64,000 bases of DNA, taken from NCBI GenBank assembly GCA_030647485.1, contig JAUSJT010000004.1:109088-173087 (forward strand). The letters run 5' to 3'. Of this stretch, positions 7,641-55,356 are shown piece after piece (positions within the stretch are counted from its first letter, which is position 1; every line of letters starts with the position of its first letter). The notes under the pieces are model-generated. The model ran no database searches, was not told where the DNA came from, and saw only the letters and a list, made by a program, of their open reading frames with translations. This DNA is from a bacterium. GTDB lineage: Bacteria; Patescibacteriota; Minisyncoccia; Minisyncoccales; UBA10102. A program made the position numbers and the translations under genes.

Positions 7641-8054
7641 ATGGGAAAAGGAAAGAGGGTTGTTGTGTTTGGGATATTTGATGGCATTCACGACGGCCAT
7701 CGGAGTTTGTTCTCACAGGCGAAAGAGCACGGTGATGAACTTATCGTTATAGTTGGTAGGAATTCCGCTTCCTTGAGGTGGAAGGGGAAGAAACCGCGAT
7801 ATTCCCAAAAAGAGCGTCTCCAGCTTGTTTCTAAAGAAGGGGGCATTGATCGCGTGGTACTCGGGGATGAAGAACAGTCCTCCTATGGGGTTTTCGAAGA
7901 GTTACATCCTGATGTTGTTTGCGTGGGTTACGACCAAGACGCCCTTTGGAAAGATCTTCAAGAATGGATCGTCAAGGAAAAGAAGGGCATTAAGATCGTT
8001 CGTCTTAAATCTTACTATCCCAAAACCTATCACAACTCAAAACTCCAAAGATAA
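7641..8054 (+). CDS. cytidylyltransferase-fold nucleotidyltransferase (FAD synthetase/RibL-like)
   Basis: 137 aa; VVVFGIFDGIHDGH (HxGH motif) near the N-terminus. Confidence 0.65.
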   Translation: MGKGKRVVVFGIFDGIHDGHRSLFSQAKEHGDELIVIVGRNSASLRWKGKKPRYSQKERLQLVSKEGGIDRVVLGDEEQSSYGVFEELHPDVVCVGYDQDALWKDLQEWIVKEKKGIKIVRLKSYYPKTYHNSKLQR

Positions 8055-8085
8055 ATTTATGCAAGGAAATGGGATTTTGAAGTTC

Positions 8086-8114
8086 TTTACAAATTCTTTT
8101 TCTCAGGGTATAAT
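8086..8114 (+). promoter_or_regulatory. sigma70-type promoter of the atp operon
   Basis: TTTACA-17 nt-TATAAT; 8 nt to the ATG of TATG 8122-8125 (left target copy of the inserted element). Confidence 0.6.
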
Positions 8115-8125
8115 CTCTTTCTATG

Positions 8126-8277
8126 CCCCGTACGAAATTTACACAGGCATAGTCACGCGAAGCGCGAGGGGCGAATAGCCCCATCCTTTCATGGGCGCAG
8201 CGCTTCGCCAATGACAGCATGCACCTATTCGGTGCGCGCACTGCGCAATGTAATAATATGGTAAATTTCTAACGGGG
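8126..8277 (+). mobile_element. 152-bp TIR element, copy A (non-coding relative of the GIY-YIG element)
   Basis: CCCCGTACGAAATTTAC...GTAAATTTCTAACGGGG termini, flanked by TATG on both sides; near-identical to 38754-38905 and 40729-40880. Confidence 0.75.
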
Positions 8278-8278
8278 T

Positions 8279-9022
8279 ATGCATATATCGCTACGGCCAG
8301 AAATTATTGGAACACTCTTTGGCATTCCCATTACCAACAGCTTGATTCTTTCTCTTATAACCGCTTTTCTTCTTGTTGGAGGCGGTTTTTTGCTTGCGCG
8401 TTCTTTGCGGATGATCCCAGGAAAAGCGCAAAATGCCATTGAAACGCTCCTGGAAGGAATCCTCGCCTTCATGGGCCAGACATTAGGGAATAAAGAGCAA
8501 GCGAAGAAATTCTTTCCTCTTGTAGCCACCATATTCTTGTTTATCCTGTTTAATAATTGGATCGGGGTGCTTCCTGGAACCGGGTCTCTGGGATTTTTTG
8601 AAGAAAACCAAGGAGTAAGAACATTTGTTCCTTTGTTTCGTTCTGCGAACAGCGATCTCAATACCACGTTTGCCCTAGCTTTAATCTCCATGGCCGCCAT
8701 TCAGTGGTATGGAATACGAAAGCTGGGGTTCTTGCGCCATATCTCCAAGTTTCTCGTGTTCACCAAGGGCCCGATTGATTTCTTCGTGGGGATATTGGAG
8801 TTGATAGGAGAGTTCGCAAAGATTCTGTCATTCTCGTTTAGGCTATTTGGCAACATATTCGCAGGAGAGGTGCTCCTCATTATTATCATGGCCTTAGTGC
8901 CGGTCATAGTGCCCCTTCCTTTTATCATGCTGGAATTCTTTGTAGGCTTTATTCAGGCCTTGGTTTTTGCTATGCTTACGTTGATATTCTTGAAAATAGC
9001 AACAGCTGAGGTCGAGCATTAG
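8279..9022 (+). CDS. atpB: F0F1 ATP synthase subunit a
   Basis: 247 aa polytopic; ...FSFRLFGNIFAGEVLL... signature. Confidence 0.9.
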   Translation: MHISLRPEIIGTLFGIPITNSLILSLITAFLLVGGGFLLARSLRMIPGKAQNAIETLLEGILAFMGQTLGNKEQAKKFFPLVATIFLFILFNNWIGVLPGTGSLGFFEENQGVRTFVPLFRSANSDLNTTFALALISMAAIQWYGIRKLGFLRHISKFLVFTKGPIDFFVGILELIGEFAKILSFSFRLFGNIFAGEVLLIIIMALVPVIVPLPFIMLEFFVGFIQALVFAMLTLIFLKIATAEVEH

Positions 9023-9033
9023 TATTAAAGGTC

Positions 9034-9290
<257 letters not shown>

Positions 9291-9307
9291 CGCGCCTACG
9301 CATACCG

Positions 9308-9817
9308 ATGACGGAGTTATTCGAAAACCTGGGTGTTGACTGGAAACTCTTGTTTGCGCAGGCAGTGAATTTTCTCTTAGTGTTGTGGCTGCTGAATCGC
9401 TTTGTATTCAGAAAGCTCCTTTCATTGCTGGAAGAGCGTAAAAAGAAGATTGAACAGGGATTGGAGCTGCGAGACCGAGCGGAAAAAGAGGTTGCGCAAA
9501 TTGGAAACGCACGCCATCGTGCATTACAAGAGGTAAAGAAAGAAGCAGAAATCGTGCTGTCTCAAACAAGGGATTTGGCTCGACAAAAAGAGCAAGAATT
9601 ATTAAAAGCCGCTAAAGAACAGCAAGAAACCATACTTTTGAATGCTCGTGCCCAGGGAGAAAAAGACAAGGAAGATATGCTACGGGAAGCGCAGCAGGAG
9701 ATACGCATGAGAGCTTTGTTCTTAGCGGAGCAGGCGTTAGGGAGAACGCTTACCCCTAAAGACGAAGAGAGAATAGCAAAAGAAGTAGTGCAGGCGTTGA
9801 AGAACTATGCAAAGTAA
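9308..9817 (+). CDS. atpF: F0F1 ATP synthase subunit b
   Basis: 169 aa; one N-terminal TM followed by a long charged coiled-coil; operon position. Confidence 0.85.
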   Translation: MTELFENLGVDWKLLFAQAVNFLLVLWLLNRFVFRKLLSLLEERKKKIEQGLELRDRAEKEVAQIGNARHRALQEVKKEAEIVLSQTRDLARQKEQELLKAAKEQQETILLNARAQGEKDKEDMLREAQQEIRMRALFLAEQALGRTLTPKDEERIAKEVVQALKNYAK

Positions 9818-10202
9818 AGTACGAATATACGCAAAGGTATTATATGAAGTCCTGAAGGGAGTTTCTTTAAGCGAGCAGAAAAAAAGGATTCATGCATTAT
9901 ATGGTATCTTAAAAAAGAGGGGAGATATAAAGATAAGCAACGGCATTTTGCAGGAATTTCAACGGTTAGAGAAAGAACAGAAGGGAAAAATAGGGAAAGC
10001 GGTTTCTGCACGGCGTCTGTCCTCATCTGTCAAAGCAACGCTTGTTTCAAAGTTAAAATCCATGAAGTTTGTATTGCAAGATCGAATTGATCCTAGTGTT
10101 ATAGGCGGAGTTGCACTGTTTTTAGGAAATGATTTTTTAATTGATAACACCATCCTTGCAAGATTGAGAAAACTATCCTATGGAAAAAGATTATCTTTTT
10201 GA
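9807..10202 (+). CDS. atpH: F0F1 ATP synthase subunit delta (OSCP), short form
   Basis: 131 aa; C-terminal [31 protein letters not shown] signature; operon position. Confidence 0.75.
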
Positions 10203-11718
10203 CATATTAAAAAAGGAATTAGAAGGCACAAACCTTACTCCCACGAAAGAAGAGGTGGGGCGCGTGGTGAGCGTGGGAGACGGAGTCGTGCAAATTGAAG
10301 GTCTTCCTAATGTGGTGTTTTCTGAAATGGTAGAAATTACCAGGTGGCCGGGTGAGAAGAATGCTCCAGTTCTTCCTGCTCTCGTATTAAACTTGGAAGA
10401 GTACGCCGTAGGAGCAGTTATCTTAGGAGACGATACCTTGGTGCAGGAAGGAGACCTGGTGCGCAGGACAGGAAAAGTATTGTCTGTTCCTGTGGGAGAA
10501 GCATTGCTGGGAAGAGTAGTGAGCCCTTTAGGAGTTCCGTTAGACGGGAAAGGAAGTTTAGACCAAAAAAAGCTTTCATTCTTGCCCATTGAGAGGCCAG
10601 CTCCTGGGGTTATTGACCGAAGCCCGGTGAATATTTCTTTGGCTACAGGCATTAAGGTTATTGATGCCGCCATTCCTATAGGACGGGGACAAAGAGAGCT
10701 TATCATAGGAGACCGGCAAATAGGCAAAACTGCCATGGTGCAAGACACCATTTTGAACCAACTGCACGAGCCAAAAGAGAAGCGCCCTGTCTGCATTTAT
10801 GTTGCCATTGGGCAAAAAGCTTCCAAGGTAGCCCAGTTGGTAAAAGATTTGGAAAGCAGGGGAGCCATGGAATATACCATAGTGGTTGCAGCAGTTGCTT
10901 CAGATCCGGTTCCATTGTGGTTTGTTGCTCCGTATGCCGGATGTTCTATGGGAGAATATTTCAGAGACAAGGGCAAGGACGCTTTGATTATTTATGACGA
11001 TCTTTCCAAACACGCATGGGCATGGCGCCAGATTGCCTTGCTCTTAAGAAGACCGCCAGGAAGAGAGGCGTACCCTGGAGACGTGTTCTATCTCCATTCA
11101 AGGCTGTTGGAACGCGCGGCAAAGCTGTCTGAAGAGAAGGGCGGAGGTTCTCTTACCGCCCTGCCTATTGTGGAAACGCAATTGGGAGACGTGTCAGCAT
11201 ATATCCCCACCAACATCATTTCTATTACCGACGGTCAAATCTATTTGGAATCTGATTTGTTTAGCAAAGGACAAAGGCCTGCGGTGAATATAGGGTTGTC
11301 GGTGTCTCGCGTGGGAAGCTCGGCGCAAACCAAGGCGATGAAGAAAGTTGCTTCTCAACTTAAGCTTGATTTGGCCCAATACCAAGAGCTGGCGGCGTTT
11401 GCTCAATTCAGCCAGGATTTGGATGCGACAACTAAAAAACGCATTGACAGGGGAGCGCGGCTTATGGAGTTGTTGAAACAACCCCAATTTGAGGTTTTGC
11501 CTATGGAACAGCAGGTGTGCGTGTTGTTTGCGGGCAATGCAGGATATTTGGATTCTGTCCCTTTAGAAAAAGTGAGAGAGTTTGAATCAAAACTGTTGGA
11601 ATATATGCAGGCGCATAACCCTGATATTTTAGAATCTATTCAAAAGACAAGAGATTTTTCAGAAGAAACGCAGAATAAACTAAAGCAAGTGTTAGATGAG
11701 TTCAAAGAAACAGCTTAA
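10180..11718 (+). CDS. atpA: F0F1 ATP synthase subunit alpha
   Basis: 512 aa; GDRQIGKT P-loop, ...[21 protein letters not shown]... Confidence 0.97.
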
Positions 11719-12622
11719 AACTAAAATACGCGCGGTGGGGAATATTAAGCAGATAACGCGAGCCATGGAAATGGTGGCTGCAACTAAAATGAGAAAAACT
11801 CAAGAGGTTGCGCTACGTGCCCGTCCTTATGCGAAATACGCGCTTTCACTATTGCGCAGCCTTTTGCTTCTTGAAGGAGGGGAGGAGTTGAGAGCGCAGA
11901 GCCATTTCTTCAAGGAAGTGAACCGAAAGAATCCCTGTCTTGTGGTGGTGACTTCAGATAGGGGCTTGTGCGGAGGGTTCAATAGCCAGGTGTTAAGAGC
12001 TGCACTCAAGTTTAGAGAGGAGTATCCAGAGTTATCTGTTGTGGCTATTGGGAAAAAAGGGAAAGAGTTCTTTGAAAGACGTGATATCCCTGTTTTGAAA
12101 AGCTTCTCTGATTTCTCCGAGGTTGTAACTCTTGCCGATGTTGCTCCCGTAGCAGAGTTTCTTATGACAGAATATGCACAGCATAGGCATGACACCATTG
12201 AGTTTTGTTCCACTCAATTTGTTTCTGCGCTATTCCAAAAAGTGGCGCTGCACAGGGTGTTGCCCATTACGGAAGATGAGCTGGAAAAGACGATTCAAGG
12301 AATTATTCCAAAGTCGGGGAGGTATTCTGATATTCAAAACGTAGAAGAAAAGCAAGAATCCGTTGTGTCGCTCCTAGAACCTGGAGCAAAGAATATCTTT
12401 GAAGAACTGGTAGAAGATTTAGTCAGGGTAGAGATCCTTCATCTTATCTTTGAATCCAATGCGTCAGAACATTCAGCCAGAATGTTTGCCATGAAGAATG
12501 CAACAGACAATGCCGAAGATTTAGAAGAAGATCTCCAACTTCTTTTAAACAAAGCGAGACAGGGAGCCATTACCCAGGAATTGAGCGAGATCGCAAGCGC
12601 AAAAGAAGCATTGATATCATGA
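11696..12622 (+). CDS. atpG: F0F1 ATP synthase subunit gamma
   Basis: 308 aa; [19 protein letters not shown]-terminus, C-terminal ...ITQELSEI... Confidence 0.92.
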
Positions 12623-14117
<1,495 letters not shown>

Positions 14118-14119
<2 letters not shown>

Positions 14120-14146: not shown

Positions 14147-14392
14147 ATGACATTTCCACTTTTGGTATTCGCAATAGACAGGGAAATCTTTGCGGGGAAC
14201 GCGCAGTCCCTTATCGTGCCCGGAGCAGACGGGGAACTTCAGATTTTAGCTGACCACACTCCGCTTATCGTCCAGTTAAAGGAGGGGGACGTGAGAATTG
14301 AGGGAGAAAACGGAATAACAACAAAGCTGCCCATCGCAGGAGGAGTAGTGGAGGTAAAACCCCATGAGGTCGTGGCGCTTGTAAACTTTTAA
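14147..14392 (+). CDS. atpC: F0F1 ATP synthase subunit epsilon, N-terminal beta-sandwich only
   Basis: 81 aa; ...SLIVPGADGELQILADHTPLIVQLKEGDVRI...; no C-terminal helical hairpin is encoded. Confidence 0.8.
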   Translation: MTFPLLVFAIDREIFAGNAQSLIVPGADGELQILADHTPLIVQLKEGDVRIEGENGITTKLPIAGGVVEVKPHEVVALVNF

Positions 14393-26789: not shown

Positions 26790-27101
26790 TTATACCACGC
26801 CAGTTGTTATTTGTTGAATACGTTTTGCTTCTCTTTCTACAACTGGTCCGTCATACTCTCCGCTATGCGCACGAGAACCTTGGTAGCTGGGTTGTTTTTG
26901 GTCTAGGTGCAGTTCAAGCGTTGCCCTCGTATTATCTGGAGATATTCTTGAGTAGATATGGAAACGTGGATAGCGCCTGCCCATGAGGGGACGAGTCCAC
27001 TTCTGTTCTCCTGTGCTTTCATCTGCGCCTTCTGGAGCGTATCCGCAGTGCCGCATGATCGAAAGTATATTGTCTCTTGAGAGCGTGATTTCAATCCTCA
27101 T
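26790..27101 (-). CDS. hypothetical protein
   Basis: ATG 27101 (MRIEITLSRDNILSIMRH...); the longer ORF-track version would run into the tRNA gene. Confidence 0.5.
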   Translation of the reverse strand: MRIEITLSRDNILSIMRHCGYAPEGADESTGEQKWTRPLMGRRYPRFHIYSRISPDNTRATLELHLDQKQPSYQGSRAHSGEYDGPVVEREAKRIQQITTGVV

Positions 27102-27129
27102 GATAAAGCATTGAGTTATGCTCAATATG

Positions 27130-27201
27130 TCGGGGCAGTGGGAGTCGGACCCACCGTCACATTCACCCCAAGAATGCATGTTGCCGCTACACTATGCCCC
27201 G
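27130..27201 (-). tRNA. tRNA-Pro (anticodon GGG)
   Basis: Hand-folded cloverleaf: acceptor CGGGGCA/TGCCCCG, D arm GTGT/ACAT with GG loop, anticodon stem CATTC/GAATG with loop TTGGGGT, T arm GTGGG/CCCAC; no encoded CCA; T-loop TCCGACT is atypical. Confidence 0.75.
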
Positions 27202-38348: not shown

Positions 38349-38747
38349 ATGACACGTTCACTTAAAAAAGGCCCATTTATTGACGAGAATCTTTTAAAGA
38401 AGATTCAAGGAACAAAACCCTTAGGGAAAGCCCCGGTAAATACCTGGTCTCGAAGGGCGACCATCACCCCTGAAATGGTGGGGTTTACCTTTGGAGTATA
38501 CAATGGAAAACAATTTATTCCAGTGCTGGTGGCAGAAGATATGGTGGGGCATAAGCTAGGAGAATTTTCTCCTACCACAAAGTTTGTACGGCATGGAGGA
38601 AGAATGCAGAAAGACATAGAACAGGGAGCAACAGCAGCTGCGGCTCCAGGAGCCGTTAGCGCACCCGCCTCCGCTGGACCTGCCCGTCCGGCAGGCGGGG
38701 CTACGGCGGGCAAGGCAGGGAAAACAGAGAAACCAACAGCGAAATAG
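38349..38747 (+). CDS. rpsS: 30S ribosomal protein S19 with about 40-aa Ala/Gly/Pro-rich C-terminal extension
   Basis: [12 protein letters not shown]...[25 protein letters not shown]...; tail ...[36 protein letters not shown]. Confidence 0.95.
38664..38714 (+). repeat. 51-nt GC-rich palindromic segment inside the rpsS tail (in frame)
   Basis: CCCGCCTCCGCTG + 23 nt (CCTGCC...GGCAGG) + GCTACGGCGGGCAAG; flanking 13-mer and 15-mer identical to atpD 12824-12853. Confidence 0.6.
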
Positions 38748-38753
38748 CCTATG

Positions 38754-38905
38754 CCCCGTATGAAATTTACAAAGGTCTATACACGCGAAGCGCGAGGGGC
38801 GAATAGCCCCATCCTTTCATGGGCGCAGCGCTTCGCCAATGACAGCATGCACCTATTCGGTGCGCGCGCTGCGCTTTATAATAATATGGTAAATTTCTAA
38901 CGGGG
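38754..38905 (+). mobile_element. 152-bp TIR element, copy B (rpsS-rplV junction)
   Basis: Flanked by TATG 38750-38753 and 38906-38909; termini CCCCGTATGAAATTTAC / GTAAATTTCTAACGGGG. Confidence 0.75.
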
Positions 38906-38906
38906 T

Positions 38907-39419
38907 ATGCAAACATTGATGAGGTTACAACGAATACGAATTGCGCCCAGAAAGATGAGAATGGTTATTGATCTGGTGCGAGGAAAGAAAGTTGCTCTTG
39001 CAAGGGATGTGTTGCGTTTTAAGACAAACAAGGGAGCTAGGATTCTTTCAAAGCTTCTAGACTCTGCGATTGCGACAGCCAAGTCATTGGGACAGGGAGA
39101 CGAGTCAAATCTTATGGTATTGAAAATAGCAGTGGACGAGGGTCCAAAGTTAAAACGCTGGAGAGCTCGGGCTAAAGGATCAGCCTATGAAATCCAAAAG
39201 AAAGTTTCTCACATTACGCTTATCTTAGACGAGGTGAAGGGTGCAAAATCCGCATCAGTATCCAGGAAAGAGATAAAAACAGGACAAGAAGCTGTGAAGA
39301 AAGATCAAGTTGCGATAAAGACAGAAAAGCCTAAGTTTAAGGCTGTATCTAGCGAGCTCAAGACTTCAAGGACTGAAAAAGGAGTTCAGAGATTCTTTAG
39401 GAAATCAGGAGAAAAGTAG
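38907..39419 (+). CDS. rplV: 50S ribosomal protein L22 with Lys-rich C-terminal extension
   Basis: 170 aa; ...RIAPRKMRMVIDLVRGKKVALARDVLRF..., ...RWRARAKGSAYEIQKKVSHITLIL. Confidence 0.93.
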   Translation: MQTLMRLQRIRIAPRKMRMVIDLVRGKKVALARDVLRFKTNKGARILSKLLDSAIATAKSLGQGDESNLMVLKIAVDEGPKLKRWRARAKGSAYEIQKKVSHITLILDEVKGAKSASVSRKEIKTGQEAVKKDQVAIKTEKPKFKAVSSELKTSRTEKGVQRFFRKSGEK

Positions 39420-40558: not shown

Positions 40559-40738
40559 ATGAACATCGCTGAACTGCGGCAAAAATCAAAAGGGGAGTTG
40601 CAGGAGTTCCTTCAAGGGCAGAAAGAAACACTGCGTCAACTTAGGTTTGATCTTGCTGCGGGAAAAGTAAAAAACGTGCGTCAGATAAGACAATTGAAAA
40701 AAACAATAGCACAAATACTAACCGTATGCCCCGTATGA
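40559..40738 (+). CDS. rpmC: 50S ribosomal protein L29 (stop codon supplied by the inserted element)
   Basis: 59 aa MNIAELRQKSKGELQEFLQGQKETLRQLRFDLAAGKVKNVRQIRQLKKTIAQILTVCPV*; below the ORF-track cutoff. Confidence 0.88.
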   Translation: MNIAELRQKSKGELQEFLQGQKETLRQLRFDLAAGKVKNVRQIRQLKKTIAQILTVCPV

Positions 40739-40880
40739 AATTTACAAAGGTCTATACACGCGAAGCGCGAGTGGCGAATAGCCACATCCATACAGGGGCG
40801 CAGCGCTTCGCCAATGACAGTATGCACCTATTCGGTGCGCGCACTGCGCTATGTAATAATATGGTAAATTTCTAACGGGG
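40729..40880 (+). mobile_element. 152-bp TIR element, copy C (rpmC-rpsQ junction)
   Basis: Flanked by TATG 40725-40728 and 40881-40884; carries the compensatory GTGGC...GCCAC variant of the GGGGC...GCCCC hairpin. Confidence 0.75.
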
Positions 40881-40881
40881 T

Positions 40882-41115
40882 ATGCCCAAAAAACAATTAA
40901 CTGGCATTGTGGTGTCAGACAAAATGCAAAAGACCATTGTGGTAGAGGTTGAACAATGGCATGTGAACTCAAAGTACAAGAGGAGATTTCGCATGCACAA
41001 AAAGTACAAAGCCCATGATGAGAAAGGAGAATACAAAATAGGAGACACGGTTGTTATTGAGGAATCAGTCCCTATTTCAAAAGATAAGAAGTGGAGAGTT
41101 ATTTCCAAGGCGTAA
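40882..41115 (+). CDS. rpsQ: 30S ribosomal protein S17
   Basis: 77 aa; ...LTGIVVSDKMQKTIVVEVE...HKKYKAHDE...GDTVVIEESVPISK. Confidence 0.95.
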   Translation: MPKKQLTGIVVSDKMQKTIVVEVEQWHVNSKYKRRFRMHKKYKAHDEKGEYKIGDTVVIEESVPISKDKKWRVISKA

Positions 41116-52734: not shown

Positions 52735-53811
52735 ATGCTGCTTGTTGATTTTGGAGAAAGCACCTGCAAGTTCGCTCTTGTGAAAGAATATGAAAAGAGC
52801 CTCGAGGTGCAAGAATGGGGGATAGAGGATATCCGCTCTTTAGAGTATGCAGCAGAGCATATCCTTGAGAGGATGAAAGGCGTGCATGGAGATATGGAGC
52901 CCGTCTTTGTAAGCTTGCCCGCCACCCTATGGAGATCGCGTGTATTGTATGAGGGAATAGAGAGGAAGAACGCGGCCTTGCGCATTGACTCTGCAGAAAA
53001 AGAAACCATCCTCGAAGGTCTTTTTGCGAGGACGCGCTCATCGCTCAAGGAACAGGTGCAAGATTCCTCTGGAATCCTCGCAGAGGACGTAAGTATCCAA
53101 AAGTTGCAGATCCTTAAGTACACGATTGATGGATACCATGTGCAAGACATTTTGGGCTTTCCGGGAACACACCTGGATGTTCAGATTATGGCAGTGTTTG
53201 CTCTTGTAAAGCATCTCCCTATCGTGGATAATATAATACAGAGGTTCTCTAGTATCTCTTCCCCCCGTATTGTTCATCTTGCAGAAGCCCTTGAGGGCTT
53301 TTCTCAAACGAGACCGCAGGACGCAATATACATTGATATGGGGGATGCATTCACCCGGATTATCGCGACGCAGCAAAAACGTGTTGCATTCGTTGACGAA
53401 GTTTCTCGCGGAGGCAGGGATTTCACGCTCTATCTTCAAGAGACCCTTTCTCTGGGAGAGAATACTGCAAAAGATTTTAAAGAACGGTATGCCTCAGGCG
53501 ACTTCTCGTTTCCCTTGAGGGAAGCGGTAAAGGAAGGATTCCTAGCCATAGCAGAAGATCTTGCACGTCTTGTATGTAAGAGTTTGCGCAGTACCAGGGT
53601 ATCTCTTCCTTCTTCTATTTTCCTTTTTGGAGAAGCCAGCAAGCTTCCAGAAATTGAAAAAGCCTTTCTAGGCAACATCTTTGAAGGATTGCCATTCCAC
53701 GAGAAGCCCCGCATCTCGTTCTTGCTGCCAAAGGATCTCTGGACCTTGGAGTTCCCCGGCAAAACAAATCCCGTCTTCACTCCATTATTTTTCTTGCCTT
53801 ATGCCCCGTAA
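52735..53811 (+). CDS. divergent FtsA/PilM-like actin-fold ATPase (stop codon supplied by the GIY-YIG element TIR)
   Basis: 358 aa; phosphate-1-like LLVDFGESTCKF, phosphate-2-like IYIDMGDAFTRI, SRGGRDFT, IFLFGEASKLPEI. Confidence 0.5.
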   Translation: MLLVDFGESTCKFALVKEYEKSLEVQEWGIEDIRSLEYAAEHILERMKGVHGDMEPVFVSLPATLWRSRVLYEGIERKNAALRIDSAEKETILEGLFARTRSSLKEQVQDSSGILAEDVSIQKLQILKYTIDGYHVQDILGFPGTHLDVQIMAVFALVKHLPIVDNIIQRFSSISSPRIVHLAEALEGFSQTRPQDAIYIDMGDAFTRIIATQQKRVAFVDEVSRGGRDFTLYLQETLSLGENTAKDFKERYASGDFSFPLREAVKEGFLAIAEDLARLVCKSLRSTRVSLPSSIFLFGEASKLPEIEKAFLGNIFEGLPFHEKPRISFLLPKDLWTLEFPGKTNPVFTPLFFLPYAP

Positions 53812-54088
53812 CATTACATCGGTAGTGTTCTTCTACGTCTATGTACTTTTGAGTTTGAAAGATGGAAACCATTATGTAGGATATACTACTGACTTGAGAA
53901 AGAGAATAGAAGAACACAAGAAGGGGCTGGTGTTCTCGACAAAAACACGAAGGCCCCTCACACTTATCTATTTTGAGGGTTGTCGAAATGAACAAGATGC
54001 TAAACAGCGCGAGCGATACCTCAAGATGACTATTGGTCGCAGATGGCTTGGCACAAGATTGAGGAATTTTAATAAAAAACTGATGTAA
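53801..54088 (+). CDS. stand-alone GIY-YIG nuclease-domain protein (95 aa)
   Basis: MPRNITSVVFFYVYVLLSLKDGNHYVGYTTDLRKRIEEHKKG...ERYLK; ATG is the left TATG copy and TAA lies inside the right TIR; the ORF-track start at 53681 is an extension into the upstream gene. Confidence 0.8.
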   Translation: MPRNITSVVFFYVYVLLSLKDGNHYVGYTTDLRKRIEEHKKGLVFSTKTRRPLTLIYFEGCRNEQDAKQRERYLKMTIGRRWLGTRLRNFNKKLM

Positions 54089-54098
54089 TGTTACGGGG
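53804..54098 (+). mobile_element. 295-bp GIY-YIG element with perfect 17-bp TIRs and TATG target duplication
   Basis: CCCCGTAACATTACATC (53804-53820) / GATGTAATGTTACGGGG (54082-54098); TATG at 53800-53803 and 54099-54102. Confidence 0.7.
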
Positions 54099-54099
54099 T

Positions 54100-55356
54100 A
54101 TGCAAAAAAAGAAAGTTCGTGATATTCTTCCTCCCAGGCGTGTCAAGGCGCACGAGCCTGAAAAAGCAACTCCATCTTCTCTCGTGCAGCGTTCCCCACA
54201 AAGAACCCCTAGGAGAATGCTGTTTTTTCTACTCTTTGTCGTGCTCATAGGAGGAATTACAGGGGTGCTTAGCCTCCACTTCTTTTTTGCCAAGGTCTGG
54301 ATTATCGTCCACCCGTACACAAGAGAGGTAACTGCCAAAGCGTCTATGACTGCCCGTGCAGGAATTGAGGGAACAGATATTGAAAAGAGTATCTCCGCAT
54401 TGATTATTAATGAAGAGAAGTCATTGACCAGACTATTTCCTGCGACAGGGATATCTACCGAGGAAGGAAGAGCTCGGGGCACCATACGGGTATTCAACGG
54501 ATTCTCCACGTTTCCTCAAAAATTAGTCGCGCAGACACGATTTCTTTCAGAAGACGGGAAGCTATTCCGTTCTCCAGGAGCCGTGGTGGTACCCGCAGGG
54601 CGTATGGAAGGAGGTAGCATTATTGCGGGATTCCTTGATATTGAGGTTGTAGCCGCAGAATCCAAAGAGGAATACAATATTGGACCTTCTAATTTTTCCC
54701 TTCCTGGACTCTTTGGGAATCCCGCATATACGACCATAACTGGAAAATCATCTGAACCTATGACTGGCGGGTCAAAAACGGAAGTTTCCGTTGTAACAGA
54801 ATCTGATTTGAATGCTGCACGGGATGCTCTTATGGCAGAGTTGCAGCAAGACGTGCGAGAATCCCTGGAGGGCAAGGTGCCAGAGGGTATGATATTGCTT
54901 TCTGACGCAGTAGACCTCCGGGTTGTTCAGGCGTCTTCACCTATCAAGGCAGCAGCTCCGTTAGACAATTTTAATTTCTCTGTGAAAGTCCAGGGAGTAG
55001 CCATAGTTTTTTCCAAGGCCGATGTTGAGAACGCAGCCAAAACGCTTCTTGCCAACCTTACAGAAGGGGGAGAAAAAATAGCCGAACGGGCCGATTCAAT
55101 AGAGTACGAAAACGTGGAAATGAATATGAGCGCCCAGAGCCTTTCTTTTGACATGAGAGCGTCCACGAGGACCTACAAAGAGATTGACCCTGTTGAATTC
55201 AAGGCGCGCTTAGCGGGGATATCAAAGGATGAGGCGGCTTTAGCGCTTTCCTTAAATCCCAGCCTGCAAAAAGCAGAGATTCTTTTATTTCCCTTCTGGC
55301 TTACATATCTCCCCCAAGACCCCAATAAGGTGGAGGTTAGCATAGTTATTGACTAG
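54100..55356 (+). CDS. hypothetical membrane-anchored protein
   Basis: ATG of the right TATG copy (MQKKKVRD...); one N-terminal TM ([20 protein letters not shown]); no family recognised. Confidence 0.6.

Follow-up and report, generated by a model that had tools for sequence, protein, structure and literature searches.

A Miniature Inverted-Repeat Element Inserted at the atpB Start Codon of a Patescibacteriota Genome: a Probable Member of a Start-Codon-Landing Family With GIY-YIG Coding Relatives

Introduction

How is the first gene of an ATP synthase operon translated when a GC-rich block of 152 bp stands between its promoter and its start codon? The question arises at atpB in a 64,000-nucleotide stretch of a Patescibacteriota genome (order Minisyncoccales; assembly GCA_030647485.1, contig JAUSJT010000004.1, forward-strand positions 109,088–173,087), which was analysed as a whole and is called the window below. 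A preliminary description of this stretch had noted a block with terminal inverted repeats (TIRs) wedged between a leaderless-type promoter and atpB, and had suggested several ways in which atpB might still be translated. Candidate-phyla bacteria have small, tightly packed genomes and are thought to tolerate little mobile DNA.

The block, referred to here as copy A, is probably a recently inserted, non-autonomous miniature inverted-repeat transposable element (MITE), one of a family that lands on start codons, has coding relatives with a GIY-YIG nuclease gene, and rebuilds the start of the host gene, to which ribosomes would then be relayed. What is unusual is the landing on start codons that are rebuilt in the process, together with an apparent partner, a TIR-bounded unit with a single gene for a GIY-YIG catalytic core that borrows the start codon of its target. 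The preliminary description covered the atpB copy alone; two further copies (B and C) and a GIY-YIG unit at 53804–54098 go beyond it.

Results

A Recent Insertion Between the atpB Promoter and the atpB Start Codon

Unless stated otherwise, all features lie on the + strand of the window. A promoter of the form TTTACA-17-TATAAT (8086–8114; TTTACA 8086–8091, TATAAT 8109–8114) ends 8 nt before an ATG at 8123; in a consensus scan it is the only sigma-70-type match within 7950–8450 (11 of 12 positions), and it is the ancestral leaderless-type promoter of atpB, as the relatives described below show. The ATG (8123–8125) belongs to a TATG at 8122–8125, copy A follows at 8126–8277 with its TIRs at 8126–8142 and 8261–8277, and a second TATG (8278–8281) gives the present start codon of atpB at 8279. 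Promoter, 8-nt spacing, both TATG and the 152-bp block lie exactly, to the base, where the preliminary description had placed them. The gene itself (8279–9022; F0 subunit a, 247 aa, PF00119) is the first of the atp operon, and its product is a 100% match to a protein of an NCBI metagenome-assembled genome (MAG).

The site is empty in five relatives with AtpB proteins 85–89% identical and with the same gene order (the nearest named relatives by AtpB are Wildermuthbacteria and Parcubacteria). In these genomes TTTACA or TTGACA is followed after 17 nt by TATACT and, after a further 8 nt, by ATGCATATATCGCT, with one TATG and no element; the layout is thus −10 hexamer-N8-ATGCATATATCG, and the single TATG stands where the left TATG stands in the window, whose ATG (8123–8125) is the original atpB start codon. 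Because all five relatives show the empty site, it follows that the 152-bp block was inserted recently, with a 4-bp target-site duplication (TSD), and that atpB was ancestrally of the leaderless type. An insertion with duplication of TATG at the junction of a leaderless-type promoter and its ATG, which had been deduced from the window alone, is directly visible in these empty sites; the alternative of an ancestral leader, for which a comparison with related upstream regions had been proposed as the check, fails in five of five relatives. A leader RNA or riboswitch was rejected on the same ground, the block being absent from all five orthologous atpB leaders and without an Rfam match even at E ≤ 10. 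No terminator was found within copy A.

Copy A has a GC content of 0.61, compared with 0.30–0.38 in its flanks. Its ends are arms of 17 bp (CCCCGTACGAAATTTAC on the left, GTAAATTTCTAACGGGG on the right) that are complementary at 15 of 17 positions, and its interior contains a hairpin, GGGGC-GAATA-GCCCC (8168–8182), that covaries in six family members: within the subfamily of the window element the hairpin has the form GNGGC-GAATA-GCCNC, and one of its pairs occurs as UA, GC and CG, which are compensatory changes. When up to three mismatches are allowed, the TIR is found six times in the window against 0.19 matches expected (none of 100 shuffles reached six), and these six are accounted for by both ends of copies A, B and C, each 152 bp long, which are 92–94% identical and lie in one orientation within 64 kb. 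Copy A thus has the marks of a MITE: it is short, carries no transposase gene, has TIRs and a TSD that is single-copy in the empty sites, and has dispersed copies.

Copies B and C in the Ribosomal-Protein Operon

Copy B (152 bp, 38754–38905) lies between the rpsS stop codon (38745–38747) and the rplV ATG (38907), with TSD TATG at 38750–38753 and 38906–38909. Copy C (152 bp, 40729–40880) lies between rpmC and the rpsQ ATG (40882), with TSD TATG at 40725–40728 and 40881–40884, and the rpmC stop codon TGA (40736–40738) is now within its left TIR. Both are bridged by an open reading frame (ORF) of 49 codons (38751–38900 in copy B, 40726–40875 in copy C) that ends with TAA 6 nt before the rplV or rpsQ ATG; the 49-aa products matched no Pfam family. 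The bridging frame is broken in copy A alone, where five substitutions are clustered in 10 nt. The proposition that the bridging ORF is kept by selection is unsupported when taken alone, the shuffled interior being open in 19% of trials.

The two ribosomal proteins that flank copy B appear long for such proteins, at 132 aa for S19 (38349–38747) and 170 aa for L22 (38907–39419). The C-terminal tail of S19, just 5′ of copy B, is GC-rich at the DNA level and rich in Ala, Pro and Gly.

A Wider Family of Miniature Elements

A search with a pattern of both TIRs returned five metagenome contigs, and a single-TIR pattern returned 31 loci in species-representative genomes, mostly of Patescibacteria, with some of Omnitrophota, Planctomycetes and others. 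The two-TIR pattern of the window element had no match in the species-representative genomes, among which the source genome is not included, and the TIR had no match in viral contigs. At most family loci a partner TIR is found 28–307 bp away together with a 4-bp direct duplication, which is mostly of the form TNNA (TGAA/TTCA, TCAA/TTGA, TAAA/TTTA, TACA, TCCA) and also CAAA, CCAG or CATA/TATG. The TIR alone is conserved across lineages; the interiors are unrelated.

Some loci show the ends in unusual settings. Two unrelated miniature elements with identical TIRs lie 13 bp apart in L020 (55–326), and the 'elements' of 28–29 bp in L027 (990–1017) and L033 (5506–5534) are barely more than two abutting TIRs. 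In L031 (4160–4260) a TIR-only element of 49 bp is separated by 5 nt from the right end of a GIY-YIG gene and, judged by eye, directly adjoins the putative 5′ end of a tRNA-Pro-like sequence.

GIY-YIG Genes Between Related Ends

A search of the window for generic inverted ends of the form CCCCG...CGGGG found a sole additional unit, of 295 bp (53804–54098), with a perfect 17-bp TIR (CCCCGTAACATTACATC), TSD TATG at 53800–53803 and 54099–54102, and a host ATG at 54100. Its only gene (53801–54088) encodes a GIY-YIG protein of 95 aa (PF01541, E = 9.7e-16); the ORF opens with the ATG of the left TSD, its N-terminus MPRNITSV is encoded by the TIR, and its TAA stop lies within the right TIR, leaving 11 nt to the rebuilt host ATG. 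The corresponding site is empty in L010, where the two host genes are joined by a single TTATG. The host gene whose start codon the unit occupies in the window encodes 422 aa, and the left TIR now contains the stop codon of the gene upstream of the unit.

Coding relatives found elsewhere measure ~280–310 bp and, at start-codon insertions, consist of a single ORF and nothing else. This ORF encodes a GIY-YIG nuclease of ~95 aa, is read from the original start codon upstream of the element through the left TIR, and reaches its stop codon within the right TIR or the duplication, 0–11 nt from the rebuilt host start. In one group (L045, L052–L064) the arrangement is (T/C)ATG|CCC[CA]GTA...GGG|TATG followed by the host ORF. 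The protein of L045 can start only at the ATG supplied by the target, because the internal codon is ATA; that of L052 is 92% identical to the window protein and precedes a different host gene; and in L053 TATAAT-N9 stands ahead of the unit, another leaderless start. The second group (L065 and L066/L067) reads ATGAA|TCCCGTTA[GA]A...TAACGGGA|TGAA, with a left junction of ATGAA|CCCGTTAG in relatives of the MNPVR type. Its ORF starts at the host ATG (MNPVR or MNPVK) and ends in ...SLTG, and its TGA stop, in the duplication, overlaps the rebuilt ATG in an ATGA arrangement. In L040 a GIY-YIG gene is bounded by a TIR of the MITE type (CCCCGTTAGAAATT) with TSD CAAA, and a second unit beside it has the TIR ACCCCGCACTTT and the TSD ATAC. 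GIY-YIG units with TIRs that are the same as, or related to, those of the MITE are those of L040, L065–L067 and window positions 53804–54098.

The two different GIY-YIG units of L040 (5001–5596) are inserted ~40 bp from each other within a tyrosine-recombinase-like gene (HTLRHSFATHLLESGTDLRY..IQELLGHANSKTTEIY), and the first of the two ORFs has a frameshift within a T-run. In L055–L064 an identical 101-aa GIY-YIG protein is found with two upstream and four downstream flanks, variously combined, and the gene that follows is often a DUF134 gene. Such a mixture could stem from insertion at more than one site, from copies that recombined with each other, or from chimeric assembly across the repeat.

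The GIY-YIG family comprises 6,654 cluster representatives at E ≤ 1e-3, and its catalytic residues (Y, Y, G, R, H, and E) do not vary. TIR-encoded termini recur in it: 48 of 120 homologue clusters begin with MP[SRK], with N-terminal extensions that vary in length (7, 9–12 and 20 aa were seen), and 18 of 150 representatives at 50% identity end with [LF]TG and a stop, as encoded by CTAACGGG followed by TGA. The nearest solved structures are UPF0213 hypothetical proteins (1zg2, E = 7.6e-7; 1ywl) and SLX1 (7wme, E = 0.05). Against the model of group I intron endonucleases the window protein scores 23.5 bits, below the cutoff of 56. It had no match among plasmids, and among phages weak matches only (32–41% identity).

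Insertion at Start Codons

All four units in the window (copies A, B, and C and the GIY-YIG unit) sit on TATG start codons and are oriented as the gene. A census of the window counted 96 TATG sites that are not fully within genes, 35 of which are start codons, so that four of four has p ~0.018. For the wider family a test was used that does not need gene calls: an insertion was scored as positive when it lay at most 6 nt from a start codon that is itself at most 60 nt from where an ORF of 80 aa or more begins. Eleven of 28 family insertions were positive. The expected share is 3.4% when all positions serve as background (P = 8e-10) and 7.9% when only non-genic positions do (P = 4.5e-6). A cruder version that relied on gene calls gave six of 28 (P = 0.02), spurious antisense ORFs having masked true starts. 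Family insertions also occur away from starts, e.g., 75 nt (L008) and ~23 nt (L007) upstream of a start codon and, for the units of L040, inside the recombinase gene.

The 4-bp duplications take in the TG of the host start codon, as TATG in this genome and as A|TGNN elsewhere, and the element therefore has a start codon on both sides. With a TGNN duplication the new start is completed by the terminal base of the TIR, so that a final G produces GTG and a final A produces ATG. In five loci (L006, L014, L034, L035, and L036) the host ATG is followed by two bases and then by the element, and at its far end the terminal G of the TIR and the duplication TGAA or TGGA form a GTG in frame with a long ORF. 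The same rebuilding of GTG, with a degenerate right end, is seen in L015, and L016 has TATG as in the window.

Translation Signals in the Window and at atpB

Shine-Dalgarno (SD)-like motifs occur in 16% of the upstream regions of genes in the window, compared with 13.9% of random 15-mers, and are thus not enriched; the lack of an SD motif before atpB, noted in the preliminary description, is confirmed and is in keeping with the window at large. Seven genes have a strong −10 hexamer 5–10 nt before the start codon, and 32 of 54 same-strand gene junctions are spaced by −47 to +10 nt, a typical junction being a stop codon, 2–6 nt and an ATG. Half of the called starts have T at position −1, which makes TATG the commonest start context. 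From the lack of SD enrichment, the close −10 hexamers and the tight junctions we infer that first genes are leaderless and that later genes rely on ribosomes that have just terminated (stop-restart coupling).

The transcript of copy A is predicted to fold with an interrupted TIR stem of ~19 bp that has both AUGs at its base (minimum free energy −73.6 kcal/mol, z = −4.7). The mini-ORF of nine codons that the preliminary description had read at the 5′ end of the message (MPRTKFTQA and a stop) is found at 8123–8152; it opens at the old start codon, covers the entire left TIR and ends at TAG (8150–8152). Farther downstream, two small ORFs noted by eye (8190–8213 and 8211–8264) overlap in ATGA, the second ending 14 nt before atpB.

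Other Features of the Window

The ORFs of the atp operon run to 14119 and are followed by an ORF at 14147–14392, all of them open in the window; they were assigned by order and length, the Pfam families of five being taken from a syntenic relative. ARAGORN called a tRNA-Pro (GGG) at 27129–27201 on the − strand that overlaps the 5′ part of a − strand ORF (26790–27179), and an Rfam scan of the whole window at gathering thresholds reported no family, not even tRNA.

Discussion

What Moves the Elements

From the architecture of the coding units we infer that the GIY-YIG protein is the mobilising enzyme. We propose, tentatively and as a reading that may well turn out otherwise, that this protein of ~95 aa mobilises the family, that the ~300-bp units would be the smallest autonomous DNA transposons known and a new mechanistic class, and that the miniatures of 28–170 bp, copy A included, would be their non-autonomous derivatives. 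Units of ~300 bp that have neither a promoter nor a start codon of their own would capture the start of the host gene and return translation to it by means of a stop codon 0–11 nt from the rebuilt start. The rival explanation, rather doubtful in our judgement, is that the MITE was moved by a host or unseen DDE-type transposase encoded elsewhere and that the GIY-YIG genes are passengers. TIRs combined with a short TSD whose sequence varies are the classical signature of DDE enzymes, duplications of 4 bp are typical of several insertion sequence (IS) families such as IS5 or IS1380, and the interior of the MITE is unrelated to the GIY-YIG genes. However, the search for a longer unit bounded by these TIRs, which covered the 64-kb window and loci of at most 8 kb (solo-TIR loci to 3.5 kb), found none, and no conventional transposase was seen. 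A passenger role is also hard to reconcile with the way in which the GIY-YIG ORF is built into the ends of the element: both TIRs are coding, the start is derived from the target, the stop codon falls within the TIR or the TSD, and the same fusion recurs in many diverged clusters.

How the Host Start Codon Would Be Served

The elements would be tolerated because they take over the initiation signal of the host gene and pass ribosomes on to it. The coding units appear to copy the grammar of the host in the order host start, element ORF, stop, 0–11 nt, and host start, and copies B and C would keep the relay by means of the 49-codon frame that ends 6 nt before rplV or rpsQ; for these two copies the relay reading is suggestive only. 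In copy A, transcription from the promoter at 8086–8114 would yield a message with a 5′-terminal AUG, from which ribosomes would translate nine codons through the left TIR and then stop. Because the left arm lies entirely within this short ORF, ribosomes translating it should unfold the stem and expose the A/U-rich right arm with the AUG at 8279, and atpB could then be initiated by post-termination ribosomes or on the right arm after the stem has been opened. The ORFs at 8190–8213 and 8211–8264 could act as a further relay of ribosomes to atpB.

Several points weigh against parts of this account. To our knowledge, no GIY-YIG nuclease acts as a transposase, and no GIY-YIG transposase is described in the searchable literature. 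The TIRs of the window GIY-YIG unit and of the MITE have only the tip CCCCGTA in common, and a cognate enzyme for the MITE was not found within the 64-kb window. The bias toward start codons could partly reflect target preference combined with the survival of harmless insertions, and some of the flank combinations in L055–L064 may be assembly chimeras. With regard to the relay, a 49-codon open frame is not rare in a GC-rich interior of this kind (P = 0.19 in shuffles), and copies B and C are not mutually independent. Early stops occur in several members at start codons (L014, L016, L034, L035, and L036), and therefore some mechanism besides a full-length bridging ORF must also work. In copy A the TAG at codon 10 cuts the frame 126 nt short of the atpB AUG, and the translation of atpB is therefore not accounted for by simple coupling.

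Among the routes to atpB translation that had been suggested earlier, reinitiation fits the architecture of the family best. A different route, which seems unlikely, is cleavage of the mRNA within its TIR stem by an RNase specific for double strands, e.g., RNase III, which would leave a new 5′ end a few nt ahead of the rebuilt AUG and thus near-leaderless messages for atpB, rplV, and rpsQ. Correia/NEMIS repeats in Neisseria are processed by cleavage of this kind, the predicted stem has both AUGs at its base (z = −4.7), and the organism appears to use leaderless starts; the stems of family members of 28–50 bp are short, however, and cleavage leaves unexplained why the ORFs of the coding relatives end right at the host start. 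That the right end of the element contains an outward promoter seems more improbable still. Its candidate is the weak motif TG-G-TAAATT (8258–8266), 11 nt before the ATG, which would leave a leader of 4–5 nt, and the corresponding stretch, TGGTAAATT, is present in all three window copies; but the motif has no −35 element to go with it, scanning for the consensus picked up no promoter anywhere in the block, other family members do not keep the TG, and copies B and C lie inside an operon, where a promoter is not needed. We give similarly little credence to the idea that the atpB copy is deleterious or unfixed, either lowering expression in a tolerant fermentative organism or being present in only part of the MAG population. 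The absence of the insertion from all five relatives and the breaking of the frame in copy A only, with five substitutions in 10 nt, would suit such a copy, but the assigned atp operon ORFs (8279–14119 and 14147–14392) are all open and the element is otherwise well preserved.

Comparison With Known Systems

The element resembles the Correia/NEMIS elements of Neisseria, which measure ~150 bp, are bounded by TIRs and a target duplication, are present in many copies, and are transcribed together with neighbouring genes into a long RNA hairpin that can alter expression. It differs from them in that the duplication is 4 bp here and TA there, in that the TIR sequences are unrelated, and in that start codons are hit and rebuilt here, with a GIY-YIG gene as candidate partner in place of a known transposase; with 4-bp duplications where TA would be expected, membership of Correia/NEMIS was rejected. 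A TA duplication of the IS630/mariner style with correspondingly longer TIRs was rejected too, as the ends would be asymmetric and the 4-bp TSDs of other copies are not TA. The clear TIRs and varied 4-bp direct duplications rule out a PATE derived from IS200/IS605, and an integron attC site is ruled out by the location in atp and ribosomal operons, the TSD and the precise absence from relatives. Rickettsia palindromic elements, small palindromic mobile elements that persist in translated regions by means of an open frame, offer a partial likeness; these lie in frame within genes and become part of the protein, whereas the present elements lie at the start codon with a frame that ends before the host start, and leave the host protein unchanged.

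For the coding units, the free-standing GIY-YIG homing endonucleases (e.g., Seg of phage T4) are comparable as selfish nuclease genes between host genes that use the expression signals of the host. Homing enzymes have a separate DNA-binding domain, act at one cognate site by way of repair and lack TIRs, TSD and miniature derivatives, whereas proteins of the window type consist of ~95 aa and the catalytic core only, within TIRs and a 4-bp TSD, before unrelated genes. The unit at 53804–54098 encodes a GIY-YIG domain without the additional DNA-binding domain, has TIRs and a TSD, and has close relatives that sit before unrelated host genes; its identification as a homing endonuclease was accordingly rejected. 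The stand-alone GIY-YIG proteins of the UPF0213/YhbQ type and SLX1 are the nearest solved relatives and share the catalytic residues; they are annotated as hypothetical proteins or as structure-specific repair nucleases, and we know of no reported link between them and TIR-bounded mobile units. No prior description of start-codon-riding TIR elements with a GIY-YIG gene was found in the searchable literature, outside which most subscription journals lie.

Implications

In genomes of this kind the elements appear to persist by occupying and rebuilding start codons, including those of ATP synthase and ribosomal-protein genes, and they amount to a natural experiment on how a hairpin of 150 nt at the site of initiation is handled by leaderless and stop-restart translation. 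There is also a consequence for annotation: TIR-encoded extensions have already been called as parts of proteins, and the neighbouring host genes may be given GTG or wrong starts. If a lone GIY-YIG nuclease does move these elements, it would add a new class of enzyme to DNA transposition and would assign a role to the large family of 'hypothetical' UPF0213-like proteins.

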